Positions 11,530 through 50,114 of a stretch of DNA of 64,000 nucleotides are shown here, one piece after another. The stretch's first letter is position 1. Every line of letters begins with the position of its first letter. The DNA lies in the IMG/VR virus record IMGVR_UViG_3300045988_184127; one strand, written 5' to 3'. Position numbers and translations under genes: made by a program. The stretch is from a virus. The notes under the pieces are model-generated. The model worked only from the letters and a program-made list of their open reading frames with translations, searched no databases and had not been told where the DNA came from.

Positions 11530-11532
11530 TTC

Positions 11533-11793
11533 ATGCCAGAACAAAGAACCAAGAAATATGTCGAGGTCGTCGCCGATTTCTCTCCTGAAGGTATTCTGAC
11601 CCCTCAGACGGTCATCTGGGACACAGGTCAGAAATTTGACATCACCTGCATCTCAGAAGTATTGCCGCGTAAATACTCAAAGACCGGCGGCGTTGGGGTA
11701 CGCTATACCTGCCAGATAGGAAGAGCCAAAACATACCTGTACTATGAGGTAGACAAGTGGTTCGTCGAAGCAAAGGAGGGTCACTGTGAATAG
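11533..11793 (+). CDS. small protein co-transcribed with Y-family polymerase (possible YolD-like accessory factor)
   Basis: 86 aa ORF starting 4 nt after polymerase stop; Y-family pol genes in Firmicutes commonly have a small partner; no motif verified. Confidence 0.35.
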   Translation: MPEQRTKKYVEVVADFSPEGILTPQTVIWDTGQKFDITCISEVLPRKYSKTGGVGVRYTCQIGRAKTYLYYEVDKWFVEAKEGHCE

Positions 11794-12340: not shown

Positions 12341-12384
12341 GGGAGGTTTCCTGGCGTTTGGAGAAATACCCATAGGACTTTGAG

Positions 12385-12418
12385 CTTTGCTGCACAAAAA
12401 CAAGCCTCCGCTCTTTGG
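12385..12418 (+). terminator. rho-independent terminator
   Basis: gcctccgctctttggcgggggc hairpin then tcttcttgtattct. Confidence 0.5.
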
Positions 12419-12860
12419 CGGGGGCTCTTCTTGTATTCTCAAAAACGTTGAATTCAATTTCACTGAATTCCGATTCAGCATTATTTGGCGTGGCTCAGCT
12501 CGATAACTTTATCGACCCTTCTCAGAAGTACCCTGTTATCGCTGTTACAAGCCGTCTGATGAGCACAGGCGTTGATGCCGAGACTTGTGAAATTGTCGTT
12601 CTGGACCTCTGGCCCCGTCCGAAATTATCTATCGCATTGCAGCCAACTATATTCTGGGTTTCTCTGAGGAGCATAACGGAAAGCAGTATAACTTCCGTAT
12701 CTGTAATGCGCTACCCTATGCAAGGGATGGGACGCTGAGCGAGAAGTTGGATGAGTTGTTTTGATAAAACAGTATAGGAATATAGCTAAGCCGCCAAGCG
12801 AGTGAAATCGTTTGGTGGCTTTTCTTTTTGCTATGGAAAAGTAGACATTGTACTTGTCAT

Positions 12861-12921: not shown

Positions 12922-13434
12922 CCTCGAAGCAAGTTCAGTTTTTTGCGCGAAAGAATATCGGATAAGTGACGCTTCCTACTCGTATGACCGAGAGAAAACA
13001 TGCAAAGACTCTACCATTCTGGTAGGGCTTTTTTGCTGCCCAAAAAGTTGGAAAAATGTCGCAAGCGAGCCGCTGAAACCTCAGAATTTTGTCGCAGCCC
13101 TTCCGAATATGAGATGTATCTCACAAAAGCGAAATGCGCTGCTTCGTATCTGTGGTGAGACAATCGGAACAGGCGAATAGCAAAATCTCAGCTGCCGCAA
13201 ATGCTGTCAAGTTCAAATCACAACTCCCAAAAGTTTCGTTTGGGAAAGCCTGCATTAAAAGTTTCGTTTTGGAAAATGCAGAGGGGAAAGGAAAATGTCG
13301 AAGCATATATGCACTGATTTTCTTCTTGCTATTTGTGCAATCCGCTCAAATTGGCGATAAATATTCCCAAAATAAATAAGTCAAAGTGCTTTTGGTGTAT
13401 AATGGCTCTGACAAACAGAAAAAAGGAGAACACT

Positions 13435-14526
13435 ATGAAAAAGGTTGTATCATTAGCACTTTCGACTTTGCTCGTCCTCTCGTTGGCTGCCTGTGGCAAG
13501 GCAGACAGTTCTGCTGCAGCCTCAAGTGAATCCAAGTCAAGTGCTTCGTCGTCAAGTGCTTCGTCAAATAGCACTTCCAATAGCACGCAAGATTACAGCC
13601 CTGACGGGATTAAAGTAGGAGAGACATATACTACAGAAGACGGCAAAACATATGAAAGGGTGTGGAGCGGCACAGGCAGCGATTTACCTACGCCGTCCCC
13701 CGAACCCAAAATTACATACGATAATGATTTCCAGGCACAAACACTTGTTGATAATGAAGAATGCACCATTATCTTGCAGAGCGTTGGCTACGATGATGAT
13801 TATGGCTATTATTGGAAGATTTACTTTAAGAATAAGACATCGGATAAAAAGCTCAACAACTGGTTTGGTTCCTGCACATTGAATGGCGTGGGTGCAAGCC
13901 TTTCGTTCCCGAGTGTTGAGCCCGGTCAAGAGGAAACGGAAGTTTGTCGTTGGAAAAGCGCTGGGCTTAAAATCTATAACATCAATCCGCAGGATATCAA
14001 TACGGTAAGTTTTTATCTCAATGTTTATAACGAATTAGATGATGCTGTCCCACGACATGACCTTGTTGATGACGATTTCGTGGTTTATCCAAAAGGGGAA
14101 GAAAACGCAACCGAGCCAAAGCATGAAACTCAACCCACAGACCTCGTCCTGGTTGATAATGACGCTTGCGCCCTGATGATTTGTGGATTTGACCCCGATG
14201 GTCTGCTCGGTTATACGGCCAAAGCTTACATAGAAAACAAGACGGATAAAGAAATCATGTTTGCCTTTAGAAGCGGAGGCTCTATAAACGGTTTTGAGTG
14301 CTTCCCTGAAACAGATACAATGGGAATCGATGCACATACTAATGTCTATATGGACATCTACTATCGCGATTATTTGGATACTTATGAGGCCAACGGTAAA
14401 GACCCCACCTCTATCACCGAAATGGTGATGCCAATCGTTATAAACAATTTCAATACTCGGGACATCTATGTAGATGAGACTTTCACTATTAACCCTCAGA
14501 CAAATTCCGTGACAACATCGGAATAA
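13435..14526 (+). CDS. lipoprotein with internally duplicated domain (paralog 1)
   Basis: MKKVVSLALSTLLVLSLAAC lipobox signal; extended -10 tgGTGTATAAT upstream; two related modules (DNEECTIILQSVGYDDDYGYYW / DNDACALMICGFDPDGLLGYTAKAY). Confidence 0.7.
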   Translation: MKKVVSLALSTLLVLSLAACGKADSSAAASSESKSSASSSSASSNSTSNSTQDYSPDGIKVGETYTTEDGKTYERVWSGTGSDLPTPSPEPKITYDNDFQAQTLVDNEECTIILQSVGYDDDYGYYWKIYFKNKTSDKKLNNWFGSCTLNGVGASLSFPSVEPGQEETEVCRWKSAGLKIYNINPQDINTVSFYLNVYNELDDAVPRHDLVDDDFVVYPKGEENATEPKHETQPTDLVLVDNDACALMICGFDPDGLLGYTAKAYIENKTDKEIMFAFRSGGSINGFECFPETDTMGIDAHTNVYMDIYYRDYLDTYEANGKDPTSITEMVMPIVINNFNTRDIYVDETFTINPQTNSVTTSE

Positions 14527-14566: not shown

Positions 14567-14681
14567 ACTTCATTTGCAATTTTGCAAATAAAGTTTCATT
14601 CTGGAAAACACGGTGGAAAAGTAAAATGCCGAAGCGCTTTTGATGTATAATAGCCTTATACAAAGAAAAAAGGAGAAAATC

Positions 14682-15704
14682 ATGAAAAAGGTTGTATCAT
14701 TAGCACTTTCGGCTTTGCTTGCCCTTTCCCTGGCCGCCTGTAGCAGCTCTAACACTACCAGTACTACTGCCAGCAGTGCAGCTACATCTGATGCTGCATC
14801 CTCCGAGGAAAGCACCAGCGACTCTTCAACGAGTACTGCAAGTAGTGCTGCCGATAATGCAACGGCTGAACCCGACATCCAGTTCGATGAGAGTTTCCAG
14901 CCACAGACGATTGCCGACAACGATACCTGTACCATCATCTTGCAGAACGTGGGTTATGATGACAGCTATGGCTACTACTGGACCGTTGATTTCCAAAATA
15001 AAACGGATGACAAAACTCTTTGCGCTATCACAAGCAGCTCGTCCTTGAATGGAATCCCGGCAGATACCAGTTGGTTCCCGGAAATTGGGCCAGGAGTGAA
15101 AACCACCGAGGTCGTTTCGTGGGATAAAGCAGGACTGGAAATCTATGGAGTGAAACCGCAAGACATCGATACCGTCAAACTTCACATCGATGTCTATGAT
15201 GAAGCAGAATGGGATGTGTCGAATCGTGATGACCCTGTCGATGATGACTTTGTGATTTATCCGAAAGGTGAAGAGAACGCGACAGAACCAAAACACGAGA
15301 TTCAGCCCACGGATATTGTGCTGTTCGACAATGATGCCTGCAGCATGGTCGTTTGCGGATTTTATTCTGATAGTTTCATGGGCTATACGGCGAAAGCCTA
15401 CTGTCAGAACAAGACAGATGACCGTATCGATGTCATTCTGGACAAAGGCTCTATCAACGGCTTTGAATGTACCCCGGAAGGAGCGGCACTACTGGAACCA
15501 CATTCCAACGCCTATGTTGACATTCGTTGGCAAGAATATGCTGAAACTTATGCAGAGAATGGCAACGACCCAACATCCATCACAGAAATTGTAATGCCAG
15601 TTTTTGTGAGAAAAGACACAGGGAACAATACGGTATACATTGATGCCACTTATTCTATTGACCCGCAGGCAAGAACTGCAACGCCGATAGTGAACCCCCA
15701 ATGA
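14682..15704 (+). CDS. lipoprotein with internally duplicated domain (paralog 2)
   Basis: MKKVVSLALSALLALSLAAC lipobox; long blocks near-identical to paralog 1 (DDDFVIYPKGEENATEPKHEIQPTD); extended -10 tGaTGTATAAT upstream. Confidence 0.7.
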   Translation: MKKVVSLALSALLALSLAACSSSNTTSTTASSAATSDAASSEESTSDSSTSTASSAADNATAEPDIQFDESFQPQTIADNDTCTIILQNVGYDDSYGYYWTVDFQNKTDDKTLCAITSSSSLNGIPADTSWFPEIGPGVKTTEVVSWDKAGLEIYGVKPQDIDTVKLHIDVYDEAEWDVSNRDDPVDDDFVIYPKGEENATEPKHEIQPTDIVLFDNDACSMVVCGFYSDSFMGYTAKAYCQNKTDDRIDVILDKGSINGFECTPEGAALLEPHSNAYVDIRWQEYAETYAENGNDPTSITEIVMPVFVRKDTGNNTVYIDATYSIDPQARTATPIVNPQ

Positions 15705-22087: not shown

Positions 22088-23782
22088 GTGACAAAAAAGA
22101 ACATTTTCCCTGTGGTTGCAACCATTGCTGTGGTAGGCGTTGTTCTCGGCGTGTTTTCGACGACTGTGCTGCGCGACTCGAATGTCAGCATCAGCACGAT
22201 GACTTCCGAGCAGGCATATGCCAACTTGAGCAGCAAGATGAAGCGCATCGGCGTGCAGGAGGTCAAGGTCAATCCTCAGCAGCTGGATGTCTCTGAATTC
22301 CTTGATGCAAAGGATGAACTGCCCGACATTGAATCCTCCTACCCATTCGTGGTCGTAGGAAACGGAGATGTGAACATCGAAATCTTTTCCTCTGGCGAGA
22401 AAGCAGCAGAGTCCGGCTCAGATTCTTTCCTGACCGAAATGGCAAAGAAGTTCAACGCCCAGCACAACAAGACTTCCGGAGACAAGACTATGAGTGTCTC
22501 CCTGCGCTCCATTCCGTCCGGTACGGCGGCTGAGTACATCTCGACGGGAAAGTATCAGCCCGAGTGCTATACCCCCTCAAATACGCTCTTTGGCGAGCTG
22601 GTGAAGAACGAGGGCGTAGAATTGACCGTTGAGGCTGACCGTCTGGTCGGCAATGTGGCGGGTATTCTCGTATCAAAGAAGACAGGGGATATGCTTCGCT
22701 CTGAATACGGTGAAGCTTCTGTTTCTTCCGTTCTGAACGCAACCATCGATGGCAAACTCATGATGGGATACTCGAACCCCTACACAAGTGCTACGGGTCT
22801 TAATTTTCTGCTTGAGGCTCTTGCGAGCAGCGGCAGCGATACGATTGTCGATACGGCTGCTGTTGAGAATTTCCAGAAATTTCAAGCGAACGTCCCTCTC
22901 GTATCCTTCACGACCCAGCAGATGGTCCAGTCGGCAGACAAGGGCATCGTGGACGGCGTTGTCATGGAGTATCAGTCTTATCAGAATGACCCGACCTTAC
23001 AGCGCAACTACGAGTTCATCCCGTTCGGTGTACGGCACGATAATCCTCTGTATTCCATCGGGAATGTCTCTGCGGAGAAGAAGGAAGTTATTGCTGCCTT
23101 CGTTTCCTTCTGCGCTCAGAACCAGGCAGAGGCGACCAAGGACGGATTCAATGGTCTTGACGACTATGCTTATACAGGCAAGGCATACGACGGCAACACC
23201 ATCGCACAGGCTCAGAGTGTCTGGAAAGAAGAGAAGGATTCCGGTATTCCTATTGTGGCAGAGTTCGTTGTCGATACTTCCGGCTCAATGCGCGGCGAAC
23301 CCCTGAATGCCCTGAAAACCGCGATGATAAACACCATCCAGTATATCAATGACGACAACTATATCGGCATCATTGGCTTTGATTCAGATGTCAGGGAATA
23401 CCTGCCCATTGACCAGTTCTCTCTGACCCAGAAAACTCTGTATAAGGGTGCCGTGAACTCCCTCGATGCGAACGGCAGCACCGCAATGTACAACGGTCTT
23501 TGCGTTGCTATGGACCGCATCTACCAGAAATCTCAGGAACTGGGTGGGAATTGCACGCCCATCATCTTTGTGCTCACGGACGGTGACAACAATACCGGAT
23601 ATGGATTCTCCGATACGAAGAACATCATTGCCGGTATGGATATCCCCATTTACACCATCAGCTACAACTACGCAGCGGATAGTCTTTCGGAGCTCGCTTC
23701 CATCAACGAAGCGGCAGCTATCGTCGGCAACAGCGAGGATATCACCTACAAGCTCCGCAACCTGTTTAACGCAGAGATGTAA
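22088..23782 (+). CDS. membrane-anchored von Willebrand factor type A (vWA) domain protein
   Basis: GTG start after AAGGAG RBS; N-terminal TM; C-terminal MIDAS motif VVDTSGSMRGEP...NGSTAMYNGL...TDGDNN. Confidence 0.7.
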   Translation: MTKKNIFPVVATIAVVGVVLGVFSTTVLRDSNVSISTMTSEQAYANLSSKMKRIGVQEVKVNPQQLDVSEFLDAKDELPDIESSYPFVVVGNGDVNIEIFSSGEKAAESGSDSFLTEMAKKFNAQHNKTSGDKTMSVSLRSIPSGTAAEYISTGKYQPECYTPSNTLFGELVKNEGVELTVEADRLVGNVAGILVSKKTGDMLRSEYGEASVSSVLNATIDGKLMMGYSNPYTSATGLNFLLEALASSGSDTIVDTAAVENFQKFQANVPLVSFTTQQMVQSADKGIVDGVVMEYQSYQNDPTLQRNYEFIPFGVRHDNPLYSIGNVSAEKKEVIAAFVSFCAQNQAEATKDGFNGLDDYAYTGKAYDGNTIAQAQSVWKEEKDSGIPIVAEFVVDTSGSMRGEPLNALKTAMINTIQYINDDNYIGIIGFDSDVREYLPIDQFSLTQKTLYKGAVNSLDANGSTAMYNGLCVAMDRIYQKSQELGGNCTPIIFVLTDGDNNTGYGFSDTKNIIAGMDIPIYTISYNYAADSLSELASINEAAAIVGNSEDITYKLRNLFNAEM

Positions 23783-23901
23783 CTCAAAAGCGCGGTTTTG
23801 TCCGCGCAGCTGCTCCAAAAGACAGCCTCCACGCGGCGAGCAGCGGGCAACGGGAGACAGTTCCGGCAAATTGTCTTTGAGACGGAAGGAGGAAGTGCCC
23901 T

Positions 23902-33275: not shown

Positions 33276-35471
33276 ATGATTACAACAAAGAAGATTGACC
33301 CACGGCCATATCAGCAGAAAGCTGCTGCGGCGATTCATAGAGAGTGGGATGCCGGGAATAAGAAAACGCTGGTTGTGATGCCGACCGGAACCGGCAAAAC
33401 TATTGTGTTTGCAAGCATCGTGAACGACCAGGTGGCAAAGGGTGAACACGTTTTGATTCTTGCGCACCGGGAAGAGCTTTTACAGCAGGCAAGCGACAAG
33501 CTCAAGATGGTGACGGGGCTAGAGACCGCGTTAGAGAAAGCGCAAAGCTCGGCGCTCGATTCCGATAAGATGGTCGTGGTTGCCAGTGTTCAGACTCTCT
33601 CTAAGCAGAATCGGTTAATGAAGTATCCGCGTGATTATTTCGGGACTATCATCATTGATGAAGCGCATCACACGGCAGCCAAAACTTACAAGGGAATTCT
33701 CGAGCATTTCATCGATGCCAAAGTGTTGGGCGTGACCGCAACACCCGACCGAAGCGACATGAAATCCCTATCTGATATCTTTGATAGTCTTGCATTTGAA
33801 TATAAGCTCCCGGATGCAATTCGGGAAGGATATCTCTGCAAAATTAACACGAAGACAATTCCGGTCGAGGTAGACATCAGCAAGGTTCATATCAATGCCG
33901 GTGATTTCAGTGCTCAGGACCTCGGCAATGTTCTTGACCTGTATCTGGACACGATTGCGGATGCCATTGTGCGAGAATGCCAGAACCGAAAGACTGTCAT
34001 CTTTACGCCTCTGGTACGAATCAGCAAAAGACTGTGTAATATCCTCAATAAGCGAAACTTCAAGACCGCAGAAGTCAACGGCGCGTCTGCGGACCGGAAG
34101 GACGTTCTGAAAGGGTTTGACAATGGCGAGTACAAGGCGCTGACGAACGCGATGCTCCTGACGGAAGGCTGGGATTGCCCGACCGTTGACTGTATCATCT
34201 GCTTGCGTCCTACCAAGAGCCGTAGCCTGTATGCGCAGATTGTGGGACGCGGAACACGCCTATGTGAAGGGAAAAAGAATCTTCTCGTGCTGGATTTCCT
34301 GTGGCTGACAAAGAAACATAGTCTTTGCCATCCTGCTGATATTTTCTGTGAAGACCCGGAAGTGGCACAAAAGACCACCGATATGCTGGCGGATGCGGCA
34401 CTCACCGGTTCGAATAGCCAGGAGAATTTCGGGAGTCCCGAATTGGGGCTGATTGAGGCAATCGAGGAAGCACAGACTGAGCTGGACGAGGAAAAGCGGA
34501 AAGCACTGTGTGAACTCGAAAAGCAGGATACGATTCAGCGCAAGCTCAAGGCACAGCGTCAAAAGCCGAGAGGATTGGTTGACCCGCTGCAGTACATTTT
34601 CAGCATCGAAGCGCCGGAACTCAACGATTATCAGCCGATGTTTGAGAGTGAGAGGCAGGAGCCTTCCGATGACATCATCGATAGTATTTCGTGCTACGGC
34701 GTAAAAGGGGATGCCATCAAATCTCAGGGCCTTGCCGCTGCAATTCTCAAACGACTCATTGCTCGCAGAGCCAGCGGAATGGCTACCCCGAAACAGATTC
34801 GGTGTCTTGAAAGTTTTGGGTTCGTCCATGTTGGGCGCTGGACATTGCGCTATGCAAGCAGCTTTTTGGACATCATCAGTTCTCATGACTGGAAACTTCC
34901 GAATGGGTTCGACGCATCCACGCTGGACCCGGAAAAGAATACGGCAGAAGACCTCGCCAAGCTGTATCCAGACTACAAGGAAGATGAGACGAAGAAAGCA
35001 CCGCGTGGGGATGCTTTCATCTGCTGCTACTACGATGCAAGCTACAATTTGGCTCGCAAGAAGGTCTGCAACAGTGAAAAAGAAATGTTGAATCTGTATT
35101 ATTCACTGTTCAATACTTGCGAAGCAAAGTACTTCTATTATACGAAGGAAGCTGATGCCTGGATGGCAGAAAAGCAGAATCTAATTGCCAGAAAGACTGG
35201 AACACCGATTCCTGCCACGCAGGCGACAAAGACAGTGCCAACGGCACCACCTCCCTTTGTCCCGGCAGCTCCCGCCAAGAGCCACGAATATTATTGCTGC
35301 CTTGCACGCTGGGACGGGTCTTATATCGGCTATGAAACTTACAAGAGTGAGCAGGCGGCACAGAATGCCCGAAAGCAGATTGCCCGGCGCGGTGAGACGG
35401 CAGTGTATGCCACGGTAGAGGAAGCCGAAGCGTGGGTCGAACGGCAAAAGGCAGCGAGAACCAGGAGGTAA
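33276..35471 (+). CDS. SF2 DEAD/DEAH-box-type helicase (ResIII-like N-terminal core) with long C-terminal extension
   Basis: RPYQQKAA...VVMPTGTGKT (motif I), IIIDEAHH (motif II), VLGVTATP (motif III), QIVGRGTR (motif VI); 731 aa. Confidence 0.75.
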   Translation: MITTKKIDPRPYQQKAAAAIHREWDAGNKKTLVVMPTGTGKTIVFASIVNDQVAKGEHVLILAHREELLQQASDKLKMVTGLETALEKAQSSALDSDKMVVVASVQTLSKQNRLMKYPRDYFGTIIIDEAHHTAAKTYKGILEHFIDAKVLGVTATPDRSDMKSLSDIFDSLAFEYKLPDAIREGYLCKINTKTIPVEVDISKVHINAGDFSAQDLGNVLDLYLDTIADAIVRECQNRKTVIFTPLVRISKRLCNILNKRNFKTAEVNGASADRKDVLKGFDNGEYKALTNAMLLTEGWDCPTVDCIICLRPTKSRSLYAQIVGRGTRLCEGKKNLLVLDFLWLTKKHSLCHPADIFCEDPEVAQKTTDMLADAALTGSNSQENFGSPELGLIEAIEEAQTELDEEKRKALCELEKQDTIQRKLKAQRQKPRGLVDPLQYIFSIEAPELNDYQPMFESERQEPSDDIIDSISCYGVKGDAIKSQGLAAAILKRLIARRASGMATPKQIRCLESFGFVHVGRWTLRYASSFLDIISSHDWKLPNGFDASTLDPEKNTAEDLAKLYPDYKEDETKKAPRGDAFICCYYDASYNLARKKVCNSEKEMLNLYYSLFNTCEAKYFYYTKEADAWMAEKQNLIARKTGTPIPATQATKTVPTAPPPFVPAAPAKSHEYYCCLARWDGSYIGYETYKSEQAAQNARKQIARRGETAVYATVEEAEAWVERQKAARTRR

Positions 35472-41970: not shown

Positions 41971-41998
41971 TTGCAAAACCGTGCGAATTGAAGATAAT
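41971..41998 (+). promoter_or_regulatory. conserved-module promoter P9
   Basis: TTGCAA-16 nt (aaCCGTGCGAATTGaa)-GATAAT. Confidence 0.55.
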
Positions 41999-42003
41999 GA
42001 AAA

Positions 42004-42190
42004 TGAAGTTAACGGAAGCAAAGGTGATGCCGATGCAGTAAAAAATATAAATAGTGCAAGATTGAAATGTCACAAAGGACGGCCGACCTGTTACCGGCTA
42101 CCGGTTGAAATAGCAGTCCTTGAGGCTGCGTAAGATTATAAAGAACTCCTATTACTTTTTTGAGTAGTGGGGGTTCTTTTTTCCTCTAAA
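42004..42190 (+). ncRNA. candidate ~180-nt non-coding transcript from P9 upstream of cas operon, containing CRISPR-repeat-tail-like motifs and ending in intrinsic terminator
   Basis: Contains gcaaGATTGAAAT (~42056-42068), hairpin ACCGGctaCCGGT followed by TGAAAT (~42093-42111), GCGTAAGATTAT (~42128), and terminator cctattacttttttgagtagtggggg + ttcttttttcc (U-G wobble stem); the 61-aa track ORF here is not credible. Confidence 0.35.
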
Positions 42191-42338
42191 AACGAAAGCA
42201 TACGCCAAGGTCAATATCTGCAGCCTTAGAAACATGAAACTGTACATCGACTGCGGCTTGATGTTTAACGATATATCATAAAGTAATGCTATCTTTCTGC
42301 CGGAGGGGAAGTCAAGCAATTAAAATTATAATAAACAC

Positions 42339-42366
42339 TTGCCAACTTGTGCGATTCGCATACAAT
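42339..42366 (+). promoter_or_regulatory. conserved-module promoter P10 (drives cas5c-cas8c-cas7c)
   Basis: TTGCCA-16 nt (acTTGTGCGATTCGca)-TACAAT, ~70 nt upstream of cas5c ATG. Confidence 0.55.
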
Positions 42367-42434
42367 CAAGGATAGAGACAGATAAAAGCAAATAACAACC
42401 ATCCGGCAACATAGATGACAAGTGGAGACGTAAA

Positions 42435-43121
42435 ATGATTGAGCAGAAAGACAGTGAAATTTTGGAGCTCGCGGGGTTTGCAGACCGGAACAGAAAGGCC
42501 AGGGAGGTTCATTCAGAGCCTATTTTCGTACAGGTGAACAGCAAGCTGGCAGCCTACACGATACCAGGAATGCGTTCGGAAGGAACGACCTATGATGTTC
42601 CGACTTACTCGGCACTGAAAGGTGCAATGGATTCCATCTACAAACATGTCGGTATGGAAGCGATTCCGACGGCGGTGTACATTCACTCTCCTATAAAAAA
42701 GACACGTATCCTGCTGCGAAATATTGAGAACATCGAAGGAATGCGCTCCCGCGAATGCTTAACGGATGTTTGCTACACGGTCGTTGTACGAATCGTAAGA
42801 ATGGATAACATGGCTTTAGAAAGCGACCTCACAGTGCAGTACAGGAATTTCTTAGAGTATGCTTCCGACAGCTGTGGGATGGGATATCCGTATCTTGGCG
42901 TGATGGAAACACCCATGTATTTCCATCCTGTAACGGAAGCTGAAATCCTTCCGACGCTGCCCATCACATCTGATTTGTGCAACATGCCTCTGACGCCGGA
43001 TTATACGAACAAATTTGAACCGGATTTGGTTTGCAGGCATCTTCGCATCGAGAATGGTGTCATCGATTTTACGAAGGGGGAGTATTTTCGCTGCTATGGA
43101 TATTCTGAATGCGCTGGTTAA
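42435..43121 (+). CDS. cas5c: Cas5c (Cas5d) type I-C Cascade subunit / pre-crRNA endoribonuclease
   Basis: FVQVNSKLAAYTIPGMRSEGTTYDVPTYSALKGAMDSIY matches Cas5d N-terminal signature (..yAlF..P......Y.vPTysALKG..esIY); 228 aa; overlaps cas8c start. Confidence 0.8.
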   Translation: MIEQKDSEILELAGFADRNRKAREVHSEPIFVQVNSKLAAYTIPGMRSEGTTYDVPTYSALKGAMDSIYKHVGMEAIPTAVYIHSPIKKTRILLRNIENIEGMRSRECLTDVCYTVVVRIVRMDNMALESDLTVQYRNFLEYASDSCGMGYPYLGVMETPMYFHPVTEAEILPTLPITSDLCNMPLTPDYTNKFEPDLVCRHLRIENGVIDFTKGEYFRCYGYSECAG

Positions 43122-45042
43122 GCACTATGATGCGATGGCAGCAGCTGGAAATGCAACGCCTTTCGGCTGGACACACAAGTTTGCTCAATATGCCGTCGAA
43201 CTAAACGATGACGGAGAAATCGATAGGATTTTCGCTCTCGGTGATTTATCCGATAAAAAGAACAAAGGCGAGGAATTCAAGATGCCAACACGCAGGCCAC
43301 GGTCTGGCAAGCTGCCGATTCCGTATGTGTTCTGTGATGATGCGGAACATCTTCTCGGCAAAGTCGGTGAAGCGAGCAATCTTGTTCGATACACTATGAT
43401 GCGCGACGCAGTCTTTATGCTGCGTGACCTGTTGGGACATTCTAAAGCCTTAGATGTCGTCTACAAGTTCTACGAAACGTGGGACCCAGAAAAGGCGCTT
43501 GACAATAAATGTGTCAGCGACGTAATGGAGGCGAAAGGCCAGGAAAAGAAAACCTTTATCCTGTTCTACAATGGCGTTCCAGTTTTTGATGATGAGACAT
43601 TTCGCAAAAGCTATGCGGCGATTGTCAATAAATATGGGGAAATGCCGATTGATACACTCAAGGGCGGTGAAATTGCTCTGTTGCCGGAACCTATCAAGAT
43701 TCGAAGCATGATAAGCGGCAATATCGGGTTTAAGGCTCGCTTGTTTCGAGCCATCACGGCATGGGGAAACAAAAAGAATGGCCCTGTCACAAACACTCTT
43801 TTGTCCAACAACAAAGCAAACACCGAGTATTTCGGACGTCAGCAGGGCAACGCCATCCCCATCACAATGCAAGATGAACATAAGATTTACGAAGCGGCTA
43901 CAGATTTGCTCGGCTCCAAACATCGGTTTCCGGTTCCGGCCACTTCACAGTCTCTTTATTCAAAGAATCAAATTATCTGGTCGGATGATATGCCAACAAA
44001 GCTGGAAGACGCGGTCATTGACCTATGCTGTTGCCGCAGTGATAAAGCTAAAACTATCTCTCAGGCAAATGAATCAGGTTCTGAAACCACTATCAGAATC
44101 CTTGAAAAAACAAAACTCTATCAGGGACGAATCACGGTTCTTTCGGACATTGAAAAGAACTTAGTCGTCAACGTCTGGAATCTTGATATGAATAATAAGG
44201 GATGTTCTGCATCCAGCTTTACGCAGATGACGCTTGACGAGCTGCTTGGAAACTTTGCCAAGCATTACACTGACATGGAAATTGACCGAAGCCAGACTTG
44301 CCGAGATGCGGATGGAACCAGCCGAGATTTTGCAAGAGCCATCAACATCTACAACTCACTTTTCGCCAAAAACAGTGATGGAAGCACGAGTTCTTTCAAC
44401 AACGCTCTTTGGAAACAACTGAGTATCAGCATTTATTCCGGAACAAAGTATCCGGAGCAAGTCCTTTCCCTGGCACTGCTTCGGTCCTGCCGTTTGCTTC
44501 AGCAAAATAAGAAAGGCAAAGAAAATCGCATCACGGCGTCTTTGGCCGGTATCACAAAAGCGTTCTTAATTCGCAATTACGGAGAGAATATGACGATGGG
44601 ACTCAACTCAAACAACACCAGCCCTGCTTATATCACAGGACGAATCTTCGCACATATGGAAAGTGCGCAGAGAAAGATTGACCCCAACAACCAAACCACT
44701 TACGCTAAACGGTTCTTTGAGCGAGTTATGATGAACCCGGCCAAAACCATGCCGGAACTTCACAAGAGTTTCCTTCTTTTGAAGAACAAGGCTAAAGCAA
44801 ATGGCATGAGAGGTCTTTATAATTCCAGCGACAAGAAAATTATGGCTCTTATCGATATGCTGGATGGCAACTATCCCGACCATCTATCCGAAAAGCAAAA
44901 AGGTGAATATCTCGTCGGATACTATCAGCAGCGAAGCGCAAACATCAAGGATGCCGAGGAGAAGAAAAACCGGAAAGCCGCCAAAATTGAAACTAATAAT
45001 ACGGATACTGCGACAACCGTTGCAACACAAAAGGAGAAGTAA
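43096..45042 (+). CDS. cas8c: Cas8c (Csd1) type I-C Cascade large subunit
   Basis: N-terminus MDILNALVKHYDAMAAAG...GWTHKF...VELNDDGEI...MPTRRPRSGKLPIPYVFCDDAEHLLG matches Csd1 family pattern (M.L.aL..yYdrl...vP.R..RTsg..p.flcD...Y.LG); ~648 aa; position between cas5c and cas7c. Confidence 0.8.
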   Translation: MDILNALVKHYDAMAAAGNATPFGWTHKFAQYAVELNDDGEIDRIFALGDLSDKKNKGEEFKMPTRRPRSGKLPIPYVFCDDAEHLLGKVGEASNLVRYTMMRDAVFMLRDLLGHSKALDVVYKFYETWDPEKALDNKCVSDVMEAKGQEKKTFILFYNGVPVFDDETFRKSYAAIVNKYGEMPIDTLKGGEIALLPEPIKIRSMISGNIGFKARLFRAITAWGNKKNGPVTNTLLSNNKANTEYFGRQQGNAIPITMQDEHKIYEAATDLLGSKHRFPVPATSQSLYSKNQIIWSDDMPTKLEDAVIDLCCCRSDKAKTISQANESGSETTIRILEKTKLYQGRITVLSDIEKNLVVNVWNLDMNNKGCSASSFTQMTLDELLGNFAKHYTDMEIDRSQTCRDADGTSRDFARAINIYNSLFAKNSDGSTSSFNNALWKQLSISIYSGTKYPEQVLSLALLRSCRLLQQNKKGKENRITASLAGITKAFLIRNYGENMTMGLNSNNTSPAYITGRIFAHMESAQRKIDPNNQTTYAKRFFERVMMNPAKTMPELHKSFLLLKNKAKANGMRGLYNSSDKKIMALIDMLDGNYPDHLSEKQKGEYLVGYYQQRSANIKDAEEKKNRKAAKIETNNTDTATTVATQKEK

Positions 45043-45044
45043 CA

Positions 45045-46007
45045 ATGTCTGAACTCGTTAAGAATCCTATCACCATTGTTCTAGCGTTTGATGCGCAGAA
45101 CTGTAATCCCAATGGGGACCCCGACAACGACAACAACCCGCGTCAGTTTGAGGATGGAATCGGGTACATGTCGTCCGAAAGCATCAAATATAAGATTCGC
45201 AGCTACATCCGTGACAAGGTCTTGTTTGACGGTCTGGAAAAGAACAGCCATGCACTATATTGCAGCCCCGATACTTTTTCCATTGAGCGCAGCGTTAAAG
45301 AGTGCCTGGAGCCTATCATCGGCAAAAAAACCAAAGGCATCCCCGATGACCAGCAGCTGGAGGCTTATAAGGAGCTGTGCCGGTACTACTATGATACTCG
45401 CATGTTTGGGCTTGTGAATACGAGTTATTCCAACTGCAGCCTTCTCAGCCGCATCAAGGGTGCCTGCCAGGTATCTATGCCGATGTCCTATGACCCTATC
45501 GAAATCATCCCGATGACGATTACTCGCTGCTGCGTTGCTTCCGATGCTGAACGCAAAGGCGAAGATAAAGGCGCCAAGAAGGGCGTCAGTATCGACGAAA
45601 GCGACGATGGAGCCGAAAAGAAGACGAAAGACCGCATGATAGGCCGTCGAAGCATTATCAGATATGGGCTGTATCACATGAGCATTCAAATCAACAGTGC
45701 AATGGCACAGCGTAACGGTGTTACGATGGATGACGTTAATTTGTTGATTGATGCGCTGCAGCATATGTTCGAGGAAGATATGAGCTCCAGCAGAGCCCTA
45801 ACGCTGCGTAAGTTGTTTGTCGTTGAACACACCAAACCGATGGGAAATGCTTATCGGGACACCATTGAGCGGGCACTGGCGGCTCGACTGAAGCAACCTA
45901 ATGATGCACCTACATCTTATGAGGATTACGAGGTGACTTATCACCGCGAAATGCTGCCTGATGAGGTCAAGGTGACTGAGTATAATTATAACAGTCAAAG
46001 CGTTTGA
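45045..46007 (+). CDS. cas7c: Cas7c (Csd2) type I-C Cascade backbone subunit
   Basis: ITIVLAFDAQNCNPNGDPDNDNNPRQFEDGIGYMSSESIKYKIRSYIRD = hallmark Csd2/Cas7 N-terminal motif (nsNPNGDP...N.PR.d..tG.g..s..s.KrkiR); 320 aa. Confidence 0.85.
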   Translation: MSELVKNPITIVLAFDAQNCNPNGDPDNDNNPRQFEDGIGYMSSESIKYKIRSYIRDKVLFDGLEKNSHALYCSPDTFSIERSVKECLEPIIGKKTKGIPDDQQLEAYKELCRYYYDTRMFGLVNTSYSNCSLLSRIKGACQVSMPMSYDPIEIIPMTITRCCVASDAERKGEDKGAKKGVSIDESDDGAEKKTKDRMIGRRSIIRYGLYHMSIQINSAMAQRNGVTMDDVNLLIDALQHMFEEDMSSSRALTLRKLFVVEHTKPMGNAYRDTIERALAARLKQPNDAPTSYEDYEVTYHREMLPDEVKVTEYNYNSQSV

Positions 46008-46110
46008 CAAAAACTAATAATTGCTGGTCAACAAAACTGTATAAGATTGAAAACACAATAGTCTGCCTCTTGTTAATACGTTGCAAGTGAGAACCTGCGG
46101 GACTACAAAA

Positions 46111-46140
46111 GTGATGCACTATGCCACATATGATTGAAAC
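46111..46140 (+). repeat. degenerate type I-C CRISPR repeat-like sequence ending in canonical GATTGAAAC
   Basis: GTGATGCACTATGCCACATATGATTGAAAC; compare I-C consensus GTCGCACTCTTCATGGGTGCGTGGATTGAAAT. Confidence 0.35.
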
Positions 46141-46220
46141 GATATTTTGCTATGGTGCGGAAATGCAGCGGCTGCAGGTAACACAACTGCCGTAAGAAAG
46201 GCTACAAAGCGGCCCATGAG

Positions 46221-46251
46221 GTCGCGTAAGATTATGCGCCCATCTGCAAAC
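46221..46251 (+). repeat. degenerate type I-C CRISPR repeat-like sequence
   Basis: GTCGCGTAAGATTATGCGCCCATCTGCAAAC; shares GTCGCG...GCGC...AAAC frame with I-C repeats (GTCGCGCCCCGCACGGGCGCGTGGATTGAAAC) and the 12-mer GCGTAAGATTAT with 42128. Confidence 0.35.
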
Positions 46252-46304
46252 GCGGGTGGACGTTCTTTTTTTGCCAAAAATAAAAATAAAACGTGATAAA
46301 AACC

Positions 46305-46332
46305 TTGCACATCTGTGCGAATCAGATATAAT
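46305..46332 (+). promoter_or_regulatory. conserved-module promoter P11
   Basis: TTGCAC-16 nt (atCTGTGCGAATCAga)-TATAAT. Confidence 0.55.
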
Positions 46333-46415
46333 AACCCTAATAAGATAAGAATTATGCCCTGACGGCATCTGAATTGGATGCTGCCGGGGCATTTTTGTTG
46401 TTAGGAGATATAGCT

Positions 46416-49136
46416 ATGACGCTGAACGACTTGTCAAGCGAACAACAGGAATTCGTACATTTGGCATTGTCGGGAAAAAACGTATTGTGTGACGCCTGCA
46501 TTGGCAGCGGAAAGACATCGACCATCAACGTGCTCTGTGATGCGTACCCTCCAGAACGGCGTATCCTGTACTTGACCTATAACCGATTACTCAAACTTGA
46601 CGCCAAAGACAAAATCAAAAATCATAATGTCTTGGTCCAGAACTATCACGGATTTGCAAGCCTGCTGCTGAACAAAAAGGGAATCCGAAATTGCGGGCAG
46701 GGTGAACAGCTCGCTATGGTATTGGAAAAGAAAATTCCGATTCCGCCGATTGATACTCTTATCATTGACGAGTATCAGGATATCAATGACGAGATTGCGG
46801 AACTACTCAAATATATCCGTTCTCAGAATCCGAGCCTTCAAATCGTCGCAGTGGGCGATATGAAGCAGAAAATCTACGATGATACAGCGTTGGATGTCTG
46901 GACATTCATGCAGGATTTCCTCGGCCGCCATGAACAAGTGATTTTCACAAAGTGTTTCCGTATTTCCCATGACTTGGCAGAACGGCTTGGCAATATCTGG
47001 GGGAAGACCATCGACGGCGTAAATAGCTCCTGTATCGTGGAACAGATGTCGGTCGATGAAGTGATAGAGTTCCTGAATAAGCAGAACCCCAAAAATGTCC
47101 TTTGCCTGGGTGCTCGAATTGGAGCCATGACGAAGGTGCTCAACGACTTGGAAAATCGACCGGGGAACCTCTATGACAAGCATCATGTCTATGCAAGTAT
47201 CGCAGACAATGATGGGAATAAGGCAGTAGCACCCTCCTCGGATGTTGGTATCTTCACGACTTTTGACGGCAGCAAAGGTATGGAGCGGCCTATCTGCGTT
47301 GTGTTTGATTTCACGGAAGAATACTGGTCGTCTCGCACAAGCAAACCGATGGCACGATATGAGATTCTTCGAAATTTGTTTTGTGTCGCAGCAAGCCGTG
47401 GAAAGCAGCGAATCATTTTCGTAAACTCAGACCATCCGTTGAGCGATAAATCTCTGATGACCCCAACTGAAACTCTTCGCGGATTTCCGCATCCGTTCGC
47501 ATTCTCTGAGATGTTTGACCATAAATTCATCGAGGATGTAGATGCCTGCTATAAGCTGTTGGAAGTCGCACCGATTGAACGTAATGATACCACGTCCATT
47601 GATATCCAGACGGCAGATGCAATGATTGATTTGTCTCCCTGCATCAGCATCTACATGCAGGCAGGATTCTTTAATTCCTACGATATAGATGACGCACTTG
47701 CGTATTACATGGACCTGCATAAAGACATGCAGTATTTGAAAATCAAGAAGGGTGCAACGGTCGAGGATAAGGTTCTACTGCTCACAGCACTCGAAACGAA
47801 TCAGTGCAGGTATGTAAAACAGGTCAAGCCTCCTTTTGTGAACGCAAAAGCCAAAATGTCGCTCAGTATGCGGCTTGGAACCGTGTTCACTCCCGATGAA
47901 TATGTTCAGGCACGTGGCGATATCGACATTCATACTAAGGACCATAAAGTAATTTATACCTCGGGCCTTGCGGATGTCGTAAAGAATAATACCGTCTACT
48001 GCATCAAGTTTATCAGCAGCCTGGCACATAAGCATTTTCTGCAGTGTGCGTGTTCCATGATGGCATTGGGGTTGCCGTATGGCGTTGTCTGGAACGTCAA
48101 AAGTAACCTGATGTACAGCGTAAAAATCAAGGATATAGACGCTCTGATTGACGCAATTACCAAGTGCATTACGAAACGGGTTTATGATAGCGCAGATGAC
48201 TACACCTGCAGGAAAGGTTTTGTACAGGATACCGCGTCGATTATCGACCGATGGACTGACGACGGATATGCGGAAGAGCCCACCACTATCACTTCCGGCG
48301 ACGGTATTGCCATCATCAAGCAAGGAAGCCGCTATTTTGTGATGGACGGAGCACGTCGAAACACCCTGAACGATAATTTCGGGATGGGCTTTGCCGATGT
48401 AAAAGATGCTTGCCTTGCTTATGCAAAGAGTTGTGAACTCCAGAAAATCGTGGACCATGATTCTCCTTATTCCGAAGTCGAATTCTGGCTCGACCAGAAC
48501 AAGGCGTTTGAGGAATACATGACGCAAGTAAGCCATGAAATCGAACAGCACAAGGAAGGACCGTATGCAAAGTATAAGTCTTTCGCTGCTCCCGCTGTCC
48601 GAAAGATGCTGGCCGAAAAGGGACTGACCATCATGTTCCCGGAAAAGGTCCTCATCAAGGTCTGGAAGATGCGCCGTGTCGAAGATGCCATGTATCAGAA
48701 AATTGAAGAAGCAAAGAAGCAGAACAGCTCCAATGTACCGCTTGATGAGGCGTTCTTTGACTCTGAACTGGTGGATTCCGTTGAGGGAAGCATCGAAAGC
48801 GCCAAGGCAAAATCCAAGCCCAAAAAGGAATCCGCATTACCGTTTTCCAAGTACTGCGCAGATGAGAAGAAGAGCTATCGTGTCGTGAAAAGCGATGAAC
48901 TCTCAAAGCCCAACCAGCCCCGTTATGTTGTGGTCGAGACCGCTACTGATAAGGTCCTGGACAATGCTAACGGATATGGCTACCTTTCCTATCAGGCTGC
49001 CTGGAAAGGGTATTCGTACAAGAGCAAGCATCATCTGGACGGCACGAAGAAACCGATAAGTAAGAGTGCAAAAGAGCAGGCAAAGAAAAAGGCGGCTTTC
49101 TTTTCGACTGACTCAGAGCAGCTCAGCTTTGGCTGA
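46416..49136 (+). CDS. UvrD/Rep-like SF1 helicase core (N-terminal ~370 aa) fused to ~540-aa uncharacterised C-terminal region
   Basis: LNDLSSEQQEFV...VLCDACIGSGKTSTI (Walker A / motif I), LIIDEYQDIND (motif II DExQD), FTTFDGSKGMERPICVV (motif V/VI-like); start at MTLNDLS with AGGAGA RBS; C-terminal part has weak GDIDIH...K nuclease-like stretch (unverified). Confidence 0.7.
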   Translation: MTLNDLSSEQQEFVHLALSGKNVLCDACIGSGKTSTINVLCDAYPPERRILYLTYNRLLKLDAKDKIKNHNVLVQNYHGFASLLLNKKGIRNCGQGEQLAMVLEKKIPIPPIDTLIIDEYQDINDEIAELLKYIRSQNPSLQIVAVGDMKQKIYDDTALDVWTFMQDFLGRHEQVIFTKCFRISHDLAERLGNIWGKTIDGVNSSCIVEQMSVDEVIEFLNKQNPKNVLCLGARIGAMTKVLNDLENRPGNLYDKHHVYASIADNDGNKAVAPSSDVGIFTTFDGSKGMERPICVVFDFTEEYWSSRTSKPMARYEILRNLFCVAASRGKQRIIFVNSDHPLSDKSLMTPTETLRGFPHPFAFSEMFDHKFIEDVDACYKLLEVAPIERNDTTSIDIQTADAMIDLSPCISIYMQAGFFNSYDIDDALAYYMDLHKDMQYLKIKKGATVEDKVLLLTALETNQCRYVKQVKPPFVNAKAKMSLSMRLGTVFTPDEYVQARGDIDIHTKDHKVIYTSGLADVVKNNTVYCIKFISSLAHKHFLQCACSMMALGLPYGVVWNVKSNLMYSVKIKDIDALIDAITKCITKRVYDSADDYTCRKGFVQDTASIIDRWTDDGYAEEPTTITSGDGIAIIKQGSRYFVMDGARRNTLNDNFGMGFADVKDACLAYAKSCELQKIVDHDSPYSEVEFWLDQNKAFEEYMTQVSHEIEQHKEGPYAKYKSFAAPAVRKMLAEKGLTIMFPEKVLIKVWKMRRVEDAMYQKIEEAKKQNSSNVPLDEAFFDSELVDSVEGSIESAKAKSKPKKESALPFSKYCADEKKSYRVVKSDELSKPNQPRYVVVETATDKVLDNANGYGYLSYQAAWKGYSYKSKHHLDGTKKPISKSAKEQAKKKAAFFSTDSEQLSFG

Positions 49137-49183: not shown

Positions 49184-49957
49184 ATGGCAGCCAAAAAGGA
49201 TAAGATGATTCCGTCTGAGAAAGAACGGAAAAGAGCACTGAAATATGCGACCCCGGCAGGTACGGGTCGGATGTGGGTAGCAATGGGAATCGCCTTTATA
49301 ATTTTCGGCATTATCTTGCTGCTGATTCCAATTGGCCTTGTTATCTCGGAGGCATCAGCGCAGAGATACGACCCCGAAAGCATCCATACAGCAACACTTG
49401 TATTCTATCTGCTTGGCGCATTTTTTGGTTTCTGCGGATGTTTATGCGTTATCTTTGGTAAGCTTGCCGTCAAAGCATTTGCGAAAATACTGTGCAAGGG
49501 TGAAATTAACTATCCGGTAGCGGAATACAAAACACCTAAGAAACTGCTGCTTCAAGAGGCAGCAGCTATCAACCAGAGTCCTAATGCTCCATTGACAGCT
49601 TCCACATTCGGGAACTGGATTGATTTTGAAGCCGATTGGCAAAACTGCCTTTCCATTCATAATGGCATCTTGCAGAGTCATCAGATTTTCAAAAAACTGA
49701 TTCTTGTACAAGACAATTTTACTTACAAAGAGCTGGACTACGAGAATAACTCGGAGCTCGGCGTCGGAGTCAAAACATTCGCCGCAGGAAGCACAACGAC
49801 CATCGGCAAAATGAAAGGCCACAAGCTCATTTATAATATCGGCATGAATCTTTCCAATGGCAAACTGGGAGTTAACAGCTATTCCATCGATACATTGGAC
49901 GTTACGAATGAAGTACATAAATGGTTAGCTGACCACGGATACACCCGCACAGACTAA
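49184..49957 (+). CDS. membrane protein (2 TM) hypothetical
   Basis: 257 aa; two hydrophobic helices near N-terminus. Confidence 0.45.
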   Translation: MAAKKDKMIPSEKERKRALKYATPAGTGRMWVAMGIAFIIFGIILLLIPIGLVISEASAQRYDPESIHTATLVFYLLGAFFGFCGCLCVIFGKLAVKAFAKILCKGEINYPVAEYKTPKKLLLQEAAAINQSPNAPLTASTFGNWIDFEADWQNCLSIHNGILQSHQIFKKLILVQDNFTYKELDYENNSELGVGVKTFAAGSTTTIGKMKGHKLIYNIGMNLSNGKLGVNSYSIDTLDVTNEVHKWLADHGYTRTD

Positions 49958-49975
49958 GAAATAGCTTTGTTCGTT

Positions 49976-50114
49976 GTCGATACTTCCGGCTCGATGCGCG
50001 GAGAACCTATCAATGCACTGAAAACGGCCATGATTAACACCATCCAGTATATCAATGACGACAACTATATCGGCATCCTCGATGAGTTGCTGGATATTCT
50101 TAACGATAAATAAT
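49976..50114 (+). pseudogene. duplicated internal fragment of vWA gene (MIDAS region) - gene remnant
   Basis: ~113 nt ~88% identical to 23270-23385; in-frame translation FVVDTSGSMRGEPINALKTAMINTIQYINDDNYIGI then novel tail and stop; no start codon or RBS. Confidence 0.55.

Follow-up and report, generated by a model that had tools for sequence, protein, structure and literature searches.

Deletion of cas3 from a type I-C CRISPR-Cas module on a large mobile element of the human gut, and the possible role of the remaining Cascade

Cascade complexes without Cas3 are already known on mobile elements, namely from type IV systems, CRISPR-associated transposons (CASTs) and a type I-C variant of huge phages. 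The last of these, reported to occur with a "helicase instead of Cas3" (Al-Shayeb et al. 2020, PMC7162821), is the closest precedent for the locus described here. Plasmid-borne type IV-A systems have neither adaptation genes nor a nuclease, and an incomplete type I-C system without Cas3, presented as carrying a "Cas8-Cas5 fusion", has been put forward as a DNA-binding system (Altae-Tran et al. 2023, PMC10910872). In this study we analysed a stretch of 64,000 nucleotides (nt) from the IMG/VR virus record IMGVR_UViG_3300045988_184127 (hereafter the window), part of a mobile element of about 260 kb, in which a type I-C Cascade operon has lost cas3 by deletion. The operon is flanked by two degenerate mini-arrays, one of whose guides matches, beside a protospacer-adjacent motif (PAM), the resolvase gene of another mobile element.

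The locus shares with the huge-phage variant its place on a mobile element, the lack of Cas1 and Cas2, a Cas5d-like protein with an altered active site and a helicase next to a Cas3-less Cascade; compared by published description, it differs in that the variant sits in CasPhi-bearing phages, whereas the element of the window has a VirB4-like ATPase (PMC7162821). Unlike what the huge-phage reading supposes, the helicase and Cas3 coexist in relatives of the window, and the Cas3-less state arose by deletion. The likeness to the type IV-A systems of conjugative plasmids is a functional analogy: it comprises a large, probably conjugative carrier, the absence of an adaptation module and nuclease, a multi-subunit Cascade-like complex, short arrays and a guide that appears to be aimed at another mobile element. 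The proteins themselves, however, are Cas5c, Cas8c and Cas7c rather than Csf1-3 and Cas6 (those of the window match type I-C profiles and not type IV Csf1, Csf2 or Csf3), there is no DinG (a weak typeIV_DinG match belongs to an unrelated superfamily 2 (SF2) helicase at 33276-35471), and the module derives from type I-C by recent loss of cas3. CASTs (types I-F3, I-B and I-D) likewise combine a Cas3-less type I Cascade with a mobile element and short or atypical arrays, but neither TnsA/B/C nor TniQ is encoded in the window or the neighbouring loci, whose sole transposases are IS200/IS605 TnpA/TnpB, unrelated to Tn7.

A type I-C operon with a deleted cas3

A first-pass annotation, made from the window alone, had recognized three type I-C Cascade genes in canonical order, and profile searches with Pfam and PADLOC support all three proteins (Cas5d, Csd1 and Csd2). 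The cas5c gene (42435-43121, plus strand, as are all features below unless another strand is given) encodes 228 amino acids (aa) that match Pfam Cas_Cas5d with 27.5 bits over the N-terminal part only and PADLOC Cas5c with 64 bits over the full length. It is followed by cas8c/csd1 (43096-45042; 648 aa from the ATG of the metagenome gene call), which matches Pfam Cas_Csd1 at 6.9e-68 (230 bits) and PADLOC Cas8c at 2.7e-65, and by cas7c/csd2 (45045-46007; 320 aa; 180 bits), identified with both Pfam and PADLOC. Within cas8c lies a candidate internally translated cas11c (44590-45042), in which an ATG at Cas8c codon 499/501, preceded by a Shine-Dalgarno-like GGAGAG, would yield a protein of about 150 aa. 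This internal ribosome-binding site and start, about 150 codons before the end of cas8c, occupy the same position in five lineages: the window and four related loci (L022, L014, L011 and L013). The arrangement agrees with the Cas11c of type I-C, which is reportedly made by internal translation (McBride et al. 2020).

In its cas5c-cas8c-cas7c order, its Cas5-type rather than Cas6 architecture and its likely internal Cas11c the system resembles canonical type I-C (Dvulg), as it does in its hairpin repeats of about 33 nt with a handle ending in GATTGAAAC/T and in the 5'-TTC PAM found at both targets of spacer S2b (see below). It is unlike canonical type I-C in lacking cas3, cas1, cas2 and cas4, in having degenerate arrays of one and two spacers, and in the active site of Cas5c. 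The catalytic residues of Cas5d, which we take to be Tyr, Lys and His from the literature on the B. halodurans protein, were located by alignment to 3KG4/3VZH and to relatives: the Tyr is retained, and in place of Lys/His stand Val-Gln (window) and Glu-Gln (L022). The reported absence of cas4, cas1 and cas2 was confirmed, since the sizeable open reading frames (ORFs) of the window gave no Pfam match for Cas1, Cas2 or Cas4; none of these genes was found at the loci of the relatives L011/L012 and L014 either.

The first-pass annotation had also stated that there is no cas3. To the letter this holds for the 64 kb, in which neither a Pfam scan of sizeable ORFs nor tblastn with three Cas3 proteins of the family detected an intact copy, but the state is that of a deletion scar, with a 26-codon C-terminal remnant still in place. 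The remnant (42183-42281) reads PLKTKAYAKVNICSLRNMKLYIDCGLMFNDIS and then stop, to be compared with VDICCLTNMHRYTEYGLEML and stop at the C-terminus of the L011 Cas3, and is matched by the extreme C-termini of the L013 and L011 Cas3 proteins at tblastn E values of 0.002-0.006 (single-region search). The sister lineage L022, whose Cas8c is 91% identical to that of the window, holds a different remnant, corresponding to Cas3 aa 653-706. A 731-aa SF2 helicase (the one at 33276-35471) was considered as a hidden Cas3 and rejected, having an N-terminal ResIII/DEAD domain, no HD domain and no similarity to the Cas3 proteins of the family.

What was lost can be seen in the relatives, the Cas8c homologues of which are 91, 74, 58, 49 and 46% identical to that of the window. 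In L014 (74%), which is syntenic with the window, RlaP is followed by a small repeat unit and cas3; then come arrays spanning about 1 kb, cas5-cas8-cas7, an array of six spacers and an orthologous helicase. Its Cas3 (731 aa) is a Cas3c with an HD domain (PADLOC 3e-177). In L011/L012 (49%) at least five mini-arrays bounded by promoters and terminators are followed by cas3(HD)-cas5-cas8-cas7 and then directly by the helicase, while L013 carries cas3-cas5-8-7 without the helicase. The window's cas3 was lost by deletion from a complete type I-C system.

Deletions of other kinds are found elsewhere in the family. The 893-aa "Csd1" of L024/L025 (L024 10001-12682; L025 155-2836) consists of Cas3 residues 1-362 joined in frame to Cas8c from residue 92, the deletion having removed the 3' half of cas3, the whole of cas5 and the 5' end of cas8. 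Its interpretation as a Cas5-Cas8 fusion was considered and proved wrong, the protein being a cas3N-cas8C deletion product. The window shares the Cas3-less state with the system of Altae-Tran et al. (PMC10910872); its cas5 and cas8 are separate genes, and the long "Csd1" of L024/L025 is not a Cas5 fusion. In automated surveys, ORFs of this kind could pass for novel fusions of Cas8. Among the copies in the window's own population, L018 has kept no more of cas8 than its last 128 codons, L023 no more of cas7 than its last 96, and L040 a Cas8 fragment of 124 aa.

Mini-arrays, promoters and a natural target

No canonical array had been reported for the locus, which is literally true; two degenerate mini-arrays nevertheless flank the operon. 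The repeats of the relatives are about 33 nt long (consensus GTAGCAGCCCGCGTGGCTGCATAAGATTGAAAN), with spacers of 34-35 nt, and form a hairpin of six base pairs, with 94% of cells paired and double-sided changes at four of the six pairs (slid registers are 22-53% paired). A covariance model (R1) built from 23 repeats, all of them from the relatives, was used in an unfiltered search of both strands of the window. Below E=2 it returned exactly five matches, all of them on the plus strand and flanking the cas operon. Tandem Repeats Finder detected no array in the window, though this program misses repeats interrupted by spacers.

Mini-array A is a separate short transcription unit with its own promoter (41971-41998, TTGCAA-16-GATAAT). 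Its first repeat (42038-42068; R1 E=0.19) is degenerate, with a weak hairpin in the predicted fold and an intact 11-nt 5' handle, AAGATTGAAAT. Spacer S1 (42069-42109; 41 nt, beginning GTCACAAAGGACGG) is followed by the terminal repeat (42110-42142; R1 34.6 bits, E=1e-7), with the hairpin GCAGTC/GGCTGC and then GTAAGATTA, and by an intrinsic terminator (42140-42185) made up of an 18-bp stem and a T run. S1 is conserved in L022 and in the cas3-bearing L014 (position 3302), the latter agreeing at 26 of 36 ungapped positions, and L022 shows a compensatory A-U to G-C change in the next hairpin.

Mini-array B begins 13 nt past the cas7 stop codon and is co-transcribed with the cas genes as far as an intrinsic terminator at 46240-46270. 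Its degenerate first repeat (46020-46053; R1 E=0.0026) is homologous to the first repeat of the six-spacer array of L014, and its terminal repeat (46206-46238; R1 E=1e-4; hairpin GCGGCC/GGTCGC, then GTAAGATTA) and terminator are homologous to those of the same array. Between them lie the over-long spacer S2a (46054-46107; 54 nt), repeat B2 (46108-46140; R1 E=0.099; bulged hairpin, handle ATGATTGAAAC), spacer S2b (46141-46173; beginning GATATTTTGCTATGGTGCGGAAATGCAGCGG), of which positions 1-31 (46141-46171) match a TTC-flanked protospacer, and an eroded repeat-like stretch (46174-46205) with a GCAG...CTGC hairpin and CGTAAGAAAGG, which was read from the sequence and has no R1 match. The relatives possess many mini-arrays with separate promoters and terminators (L014 5845-5916 and 8469-8501; L011 4260-6780), some of them spacerless (a repeat, 6 nt and a terminal repeat), and each closes with the conserved terminal repeat and terminator. 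Such a modular guide layout with no adaptation genes nearby is unusual.

The conserved promoters of the first-pass annotation were borne out, with copies upstream of the operon and of the helicase gene. The promoter-like repeat, TTGC-N5-TGTGCGAAT-...-A.AAT, was found by repeat families D2/D3 and a promoter scan in at least 12 copies in the window (among them 19316, 21201, 25406, 29771, 32907, 39805, 41971, 42339, 46305 and 60020), the TGTGCGAA core that separates the -35 and -10 hexamers being invariant. Promoter P10 (42339-42366; TTGCCA-16-TACAAT) serves cas5-cas8-cas7 and mini-array B, and P11 (46305-46332) serves the helicase gene. In one related locus (L009) the DNA before about 41911 and after about 46408 is unrelated to the window; because both outer sides differ, the segment 41911-46408 acts as one cassette. 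It is composed of the promoter-driven one-spacer mini-array, a second promoter with cas5c-cas8c(+cas11c)-cas7c, and the co-transcribed two-spacer mini-array with its terminator. The borders of the cassette (41911 and 46408), like the variable gene cassettes of other element copies, adjoin conserved promoter-like sites, which may double as recombination points for the shuffling of modules. An IS605-family TnpB (369 aa) is inserted between mini-array B/P11 and the helicase in many element copies, with L001, L003, L005, L006, L007 and L009 among them (there ~11443-12552, corresponding to window ~46408-46413), and is not in the window copy itself, being an insertion polymorphism.

A target could be found for S2b. 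A scan of IMG/VR, with wildcards at positions 6, 12 and 18, identified besides the element's own arrays one foreign contig (L038; IMG/VR 116576), and a scan of the GTDB representatives, built to exclude array context, identified a single genome, that of Gemmiger formicilis MCC627 (L039). In both, TTC stands directly 5' of GATATTTTGCTGTGGTGTGGAAATGCGGCAGTA, and the window spacer agrees with this sequence at 27 of 31 positions, with mismatches at 12, 18, 27 and 30 only. The site corresponds to codons 6-16 (YCRISTPQQNI) of a serine recombinase of 238-241 aa (Pfam Resolvase, ~1e-20); the protospacer starts 17 nt after the ATG and lies 17-47 nt into the gene, and the predicted crRNA (CRISPR RNA) would pair with the coding strand. 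The recombinases of L038 and L039 are 79% identical overall and 100% identical across the protospacer. The L038 gene has as neighbours a SprT-like gene, a Mob_Pre relaxase, a coupling protein of a type IV secretion system and a type I restriction-modification system, and judging by this gene content L038 represents another mobilisable or conjugative element.

Placed in the target, the base that the spacer has at position 12 would change CAG to TAG, and the one at position 27 would replace the catalytic Arg. Because two of the substitutions would otherwise give the target a stop codon or cost it this Arg, they arose in the spacer. Type I Cascades flip every sixth position out of the duplex, and three of the four mismatches fall on such positions (p=0.008 in a hypergeometric test without correction for ascertainment). 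The PAM, and the part of the match that lies past position 23, do not depend on how the search pattern was set. Neither the window nor the fetched loci encode a homologue of the target resolvase, and none of the three spacers has a self-target elsewhere in the 64-kb window. A protein-coding origin of S1 (VTKDGRPVTGYR) was considered and dropped, no counterpart being found in the window or the loci; the L022 spacer and one L014 spacer gave no target in IMG/VR.

CreTA-type crlRNAs, which guide Cascade to repress promoters, provide a further comparison. Shared features are a degenerate repeat-spacer-repeat unit beside cas genes, binding without cleavage (here predicted), and the conservation of a guide, S1, across diverged lineages including a cas3-bearing one. 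The locus differs in that no promoter or toxin gene in the window is a self-target of any spacer, that the S2b match is full-length and not confined to the seed, and that cas3 is gone, not merely unrecruited.

The Cascade genes of these elements are themselves matched by a spacer. A spacer of L014 (13183-13217) matches cas7 of related elements, including the window at 45142-45176 (minus strand, inside cas7; 27/35, TTC PAM). The adjoining trinucleotide is TTC in the window and L022 and CTC in L014's own cas7, and the mismatches to the window, as inferred from their coordinates, mostly follow a 3-nt period, as expected of third codon positions. Related elements thus seem to aim their CRISPR systems at one another's Cascade genes.

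Readings of a Cascade without Cas3

The reading we tentatively prefer, giving it a little short of an even chance, is that the cas3-deleted module has been kept as a nuclease-free DNA binder with fixed guides, employed in conflict between mobile elements. Cascade would assemble on the fixed, degenerate crRNAs of the mini-arrays once these had matured, recognise TTC-flanked targets and form an R-loop. With no Cas3 to be recruited it would stay bound, so that transcription, and possibly replication or recombination, would be blocked and the DNA not degraded. The S2b guide would pair with the coding strand of the resolvase gene of other mobile elements in Gemmiger-type hosts, and the role would be one of nuclease-free conflict, by analogy with plasmid-borne type IV systems. 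Transcriptional silencing or competition between elements had been offered as an alternative in the first-pass annotation, and it gains direct support from the flanking mini-arrays and from the PAM-bearing protospacer in a resolvase gene of another mobile element.

The Cascade genes are under purifying selection. Between the window and L022, both of them cas3-less, dN/dS (the ratio of nonsynonymous to synonymous substitution rates) is 0.09 for cas5, 0.12 for cas8 and 0.11 for cas7, at dS values of 0.42-0.53. In nine independent samples the nucleotide identity of the cassette segments to the window is 99.4-100%, the exception being cas5 of L006 (98.9%), and in the same samples the flanks are more diverged (RlaP gene 92-97%, helicase 92-95% identical). 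A uniform cassette between diverged flanks is the pattern expected of a recent spread of the cassette across diverged backbones. A stronger version of the preferred reading, in which the module has converged on a type IV lifestyle, with a guide under selection that mutates almost only at sixth positions and a cassette swept by recombination at the conserved promoters, is possible, though we regard it as doubtful.

Several observations weigh against a maintained binder. The repeats are degenerate and eroded, and the spacers measure 41, 54 and about 31-65 nt, as against 34-35 nt in the relatives. The His of the Cas5d active site is replaced by Gln in exactly the two cas3-less lineages and kept in the cas3-bearing L014, L011 and L016, and its loss from Cas5c may impair the processing of pre-crRNA. 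No target was found for S1 in IMG/VR, the GTDB representatives or JGI metagenomes (self matches at most), nor for S2a in IMG/VR or JGI metagenomes. As the scan with S2b tolerated mismatches at positions 6, 12 and 18 only, the sixth-position test is partly biased. Another lineage (L024) holds the dead cas3N-cas8C fusion, and Cascade has been partly or wholly deleted from some element copies (L018, L023 and L040). Direct inspection for cas3 and arrays covered 64 of the ~260 kb of the element, so that one or the other may lie elsewhere in it; however, no abundant Cas3 cluster attributable to the lineage surfaced.

Plain decay is the main and a serious rival, even if on balance we think it unlikely. 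According to this explanation cas3 was lost first, the arrays are eroding, the Cas5c His has gone and Cascade is useless, its intact ORFs reflecting recent loss or hitch-hiking. The cas3 remnants of the window and L022 fit such a course, and so do the degenerate repeats and irregular spacers, the confinement of the His-to-Gln change to cas3-less lineages, the partial Cascade deletions within the population, the fusion in L024/L025 and the fact that two of the three spacers lack a detected target. Decay does not, however, readily account for a dN/dS of about 0.1 at a dS of about 0.45 between two cas3-less lineages, or for a cassette far less diverse than its flanks in a globally spread population. 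It also sits badly with the conserved internal cas11 start, with the retention by S2b of its pairing positions and a PAM-bearing target, and with the promoter and terminator that mini-array A has kept for itself.

A second alternative, which we rate as decidedly improbable, is that the Cascade of the element recruits in trans the Cas3c of a resident type I-C system of the host, so that DNA of rival elements is still degraded. The handle that ends the repeats, ATTGAAAC/T, and the TTC PAM are those of canonical type I-C; the diverse arrays of relatives without cas1, cas2 and cas4 imply adaptation by host functions in trans, and the use of host Cas proteins by phage systems lacking effectors was proposed by Al-Shayeb et al. 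(PMC7162821). On the other hand, Cas8c is just ~45-75% identical among related elements, which makes cross-recruitment uncertain, the cas3-bearing relatives evidently need a copy of their own, and a compatible host Cas3 is a presumption.

It is very unlikely, in our estimate, that the locus is an anti-CRISPR mimic, whose Cascade proteins and repeat-like RNAs would soak up the crRNAs or Cas proteins of a host type I-C system, or form dead complexes, and so shield the element. Anti-defence genes are numerous in the region (AcrVA2-like, NADAR, Apyc1-like metallo-beta-lactamase and methyltransferases), solitary repeat units of phages act as RNA anti-CRISPRs (PMC10651486), and arrayless viral Cas homologues have been proposed to be biomimicry anti-CRISPRs (PMC10910872); yet the spacers have been kept, one of them with a bona fide PAM-bearing target, the relatives hold full interference systems rather than decoys, and the host type I-C system is hypothetical.

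The remaining explanation is the leading idea of the first-pass annotation, namely that the neighbouring superfamily 1 (SF1) helicase, described as a putative nuclease, could replace Cas3. The 906-aa UvrD-type protein itself (46416-49136, read from the ATG of the metagenome gene caller) is as annotated, with an AAA_19/UvrD N-terminal core in Pfam, the helicase motifs and a promoter of its own. Structure prediction with AlphaFold (mean pLDDT, the model's per-residue confidence score, 73; with good confidence for residues ~1-600 and low confidence for most of the extension at the C-terminus) and a Foldseek comparison returned a generic fold of the PcrA/UvrD/Rep type. The ~540-aa C-terminal region that had been called unknown is so only in part: ~240 aa of it belong to the conserved core of the family (residues 1 to ~590), including a PD-(D/E)xK-like domain with CIK in place of ExK, and the rest (590-906) is an extension with two small beta-rich domains. 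This core is shared by more than 1700 proteins of about 600 aa, including chromosomal "AAA family ATPase" genes without cas neighbours in Lachnospira metagenome-assembled genomes. Homologues of ~600 aa read ADV...YELKF at the nuclease motif, the window protein reads ADV...YCIKF, and the Glu has become Cys or Leu in all long forms. A beta-rich module of about 60 aa (residues 820-881, window 48873-49058), repeated around residues 630-672, is similar to the C-terminus of LaTranC (TnpB-like; PDB 9jfq) and, at 46-48% over 63 aa, to hypothetical proteins encoded by Staphylococcus jumbo phages of ~265 kb.

The pairing of Cascade with a UvrD-like gene does recur in three diverged lineages (window/L022, L014 and L011), but each partner is also found without the other. 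Orthologues 50-51% identical to the window helicase follow cas7 in L011, L012 and L014 alongside an HD-bearing Cas3c (the L011/L012 protein, of 888 aa, at 51%); L043 has a 912-aa orthologue (cluster of more than 1700 sequences) in the same syntenic slot with no cas gene or array, and in L023 the helicase survived the deletion of Cascade, of which a cas7 remnant of 96 codons is all that is left. Conversely, no helicase adjoins the Cascade of L009, L013, L015/16 or L024. Nor do the divergences track each other, the helicase being 50-51% identical to both L011 and L014 where Cas8c is 49% and 74% identical. Judging from these comparisons, the helicase gene belongs to the backbone of the region and has a promoter to itself; its product is a neighbour of Cascade and not a substitute for Cas3. 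Least probable of all, therefore, is a Cascade working with this helicase as Cas3 substitute or DinG-like partner, for which the recurrent cas7-(array)-helicase order, the "helicase instead of Cas3" of the huge-phage variant (PMC7162821) and type IV-A (which works with a helicase and not a nuclease) could be adduced, against the intact Cas3 beside it in L011 and L014, the occurrence of either without the other, the separate promoter, the tolerated TnpB insertion between the two, the core homologues of Lachnospira, the lost ExK motif and a divergence untracked by Cascade.

The carrier element and its evolution

The sequence of the window cas7c recurs identically in 3783 blocks of the collection, the carriers being human-gut metagenome contigs of 219-280 kb, and fragments of the element are stored in IMG/VR as "viral" contigs. 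A jumbo phage, suggested by the IMG/VR membership, the contig size and the RNA-repair genes, was considered and dropped once a VirB4-like conjugal-transfer ATPase of 886 aa (L042 1617-4277; NCBIfam CD1110 family, 7.7e-81) was found ~6-8 kb before the start of the window. Because of this ATPase we read the element as conjugative despite its viral listing: it is probably a conjugative megaplasmid or hybrid of ~220-280 kb (about 260 kb), highly prevalent in gut Clostridia. Megablast of the locus against the INPHARED phages and PLSDB plasmids gave no match, the mini-array sequence is not in the GTDB species representatives, and searches of the literature turned up no account of the element.

The window is a variable accessory region in which nearly all genes run in one direction and genes for defence and anti-defence are dense (AcrVA2-like, NADAR, Apyc1-like metallo-beta-lactamase, RlaP, type I methyltransferase and specificity subunits, Y-family polymerase, phospholipase D (PLD) nuclease); in this it resembles an anti-defence-rich leading or accessory region. 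An HDV-like (hepatitis delta virus-like) ribozyme known from Faecalibacterium prausnitzii (Rfam RF02682; 58 bits, gathering score 44) lies at 23809-23878 (plus strand) and begins ~27 nt past the stop codon of a gene with a vWA (von Willebrand factor A) domain (22088-23782), which hints at an Oscillospirales host and at RNA processing within the operon. The 3' part of the same vWA gene contains one copy (23263-23371) of a 109-nt direct repeat, the other copy of which (49969-50077, 92% identical) is located between a 257-aa ORF and an N6 methyltransferase gene; the repeat may be a recombination scar or module junction. This ORF (49184-49957), for which neither Pfam nor PHROGs nor PADLOC gave a match, comes after the helicase in most element copies and is missing from L002, L005 and L009, the last of which also lacks the helicase.

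Two further features of the region deserve mention. An IS200/IS605-type insertion on the minus strand (7767-9909) comprises a Y1 transposase gene (9508-9909) and a neighbour of 578 aa that matches only a PHROG "transposase" family and could be a large TnpB/IscB-like partner. Tandem lipoprotein paralogues (13333-14526 and 14640-15704), whose 91-nt 5' regions (ribosome-binding site, signal peptide and lipobox) are 84% identical, would as surface lipoproteins be in keeping with a function in entry exclusion or mating on such a conjugative carrier.

The conversion of a canonical interference system into one that only binds is seldom observed in progress. Here one abundant family of gut elements displays all the stages, from the full system through the deletion of cas3 with scars left behind and a dead fusion to complete loss, and at its Cas3-less stage combines purifying selection and a sweep-like low diversity with a guide that has an identifiable natural target. 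The locus reveals a route of origin, corrects the inference drawn from the helicase and supplies a target that can be tested; the earlier annotation of a "helicase instead of Cas3" in huge phages may call for similar care. The idea that a type I-C Cascade has been reused for nuclease-free warfare between mobile elements thereby becomes testable.

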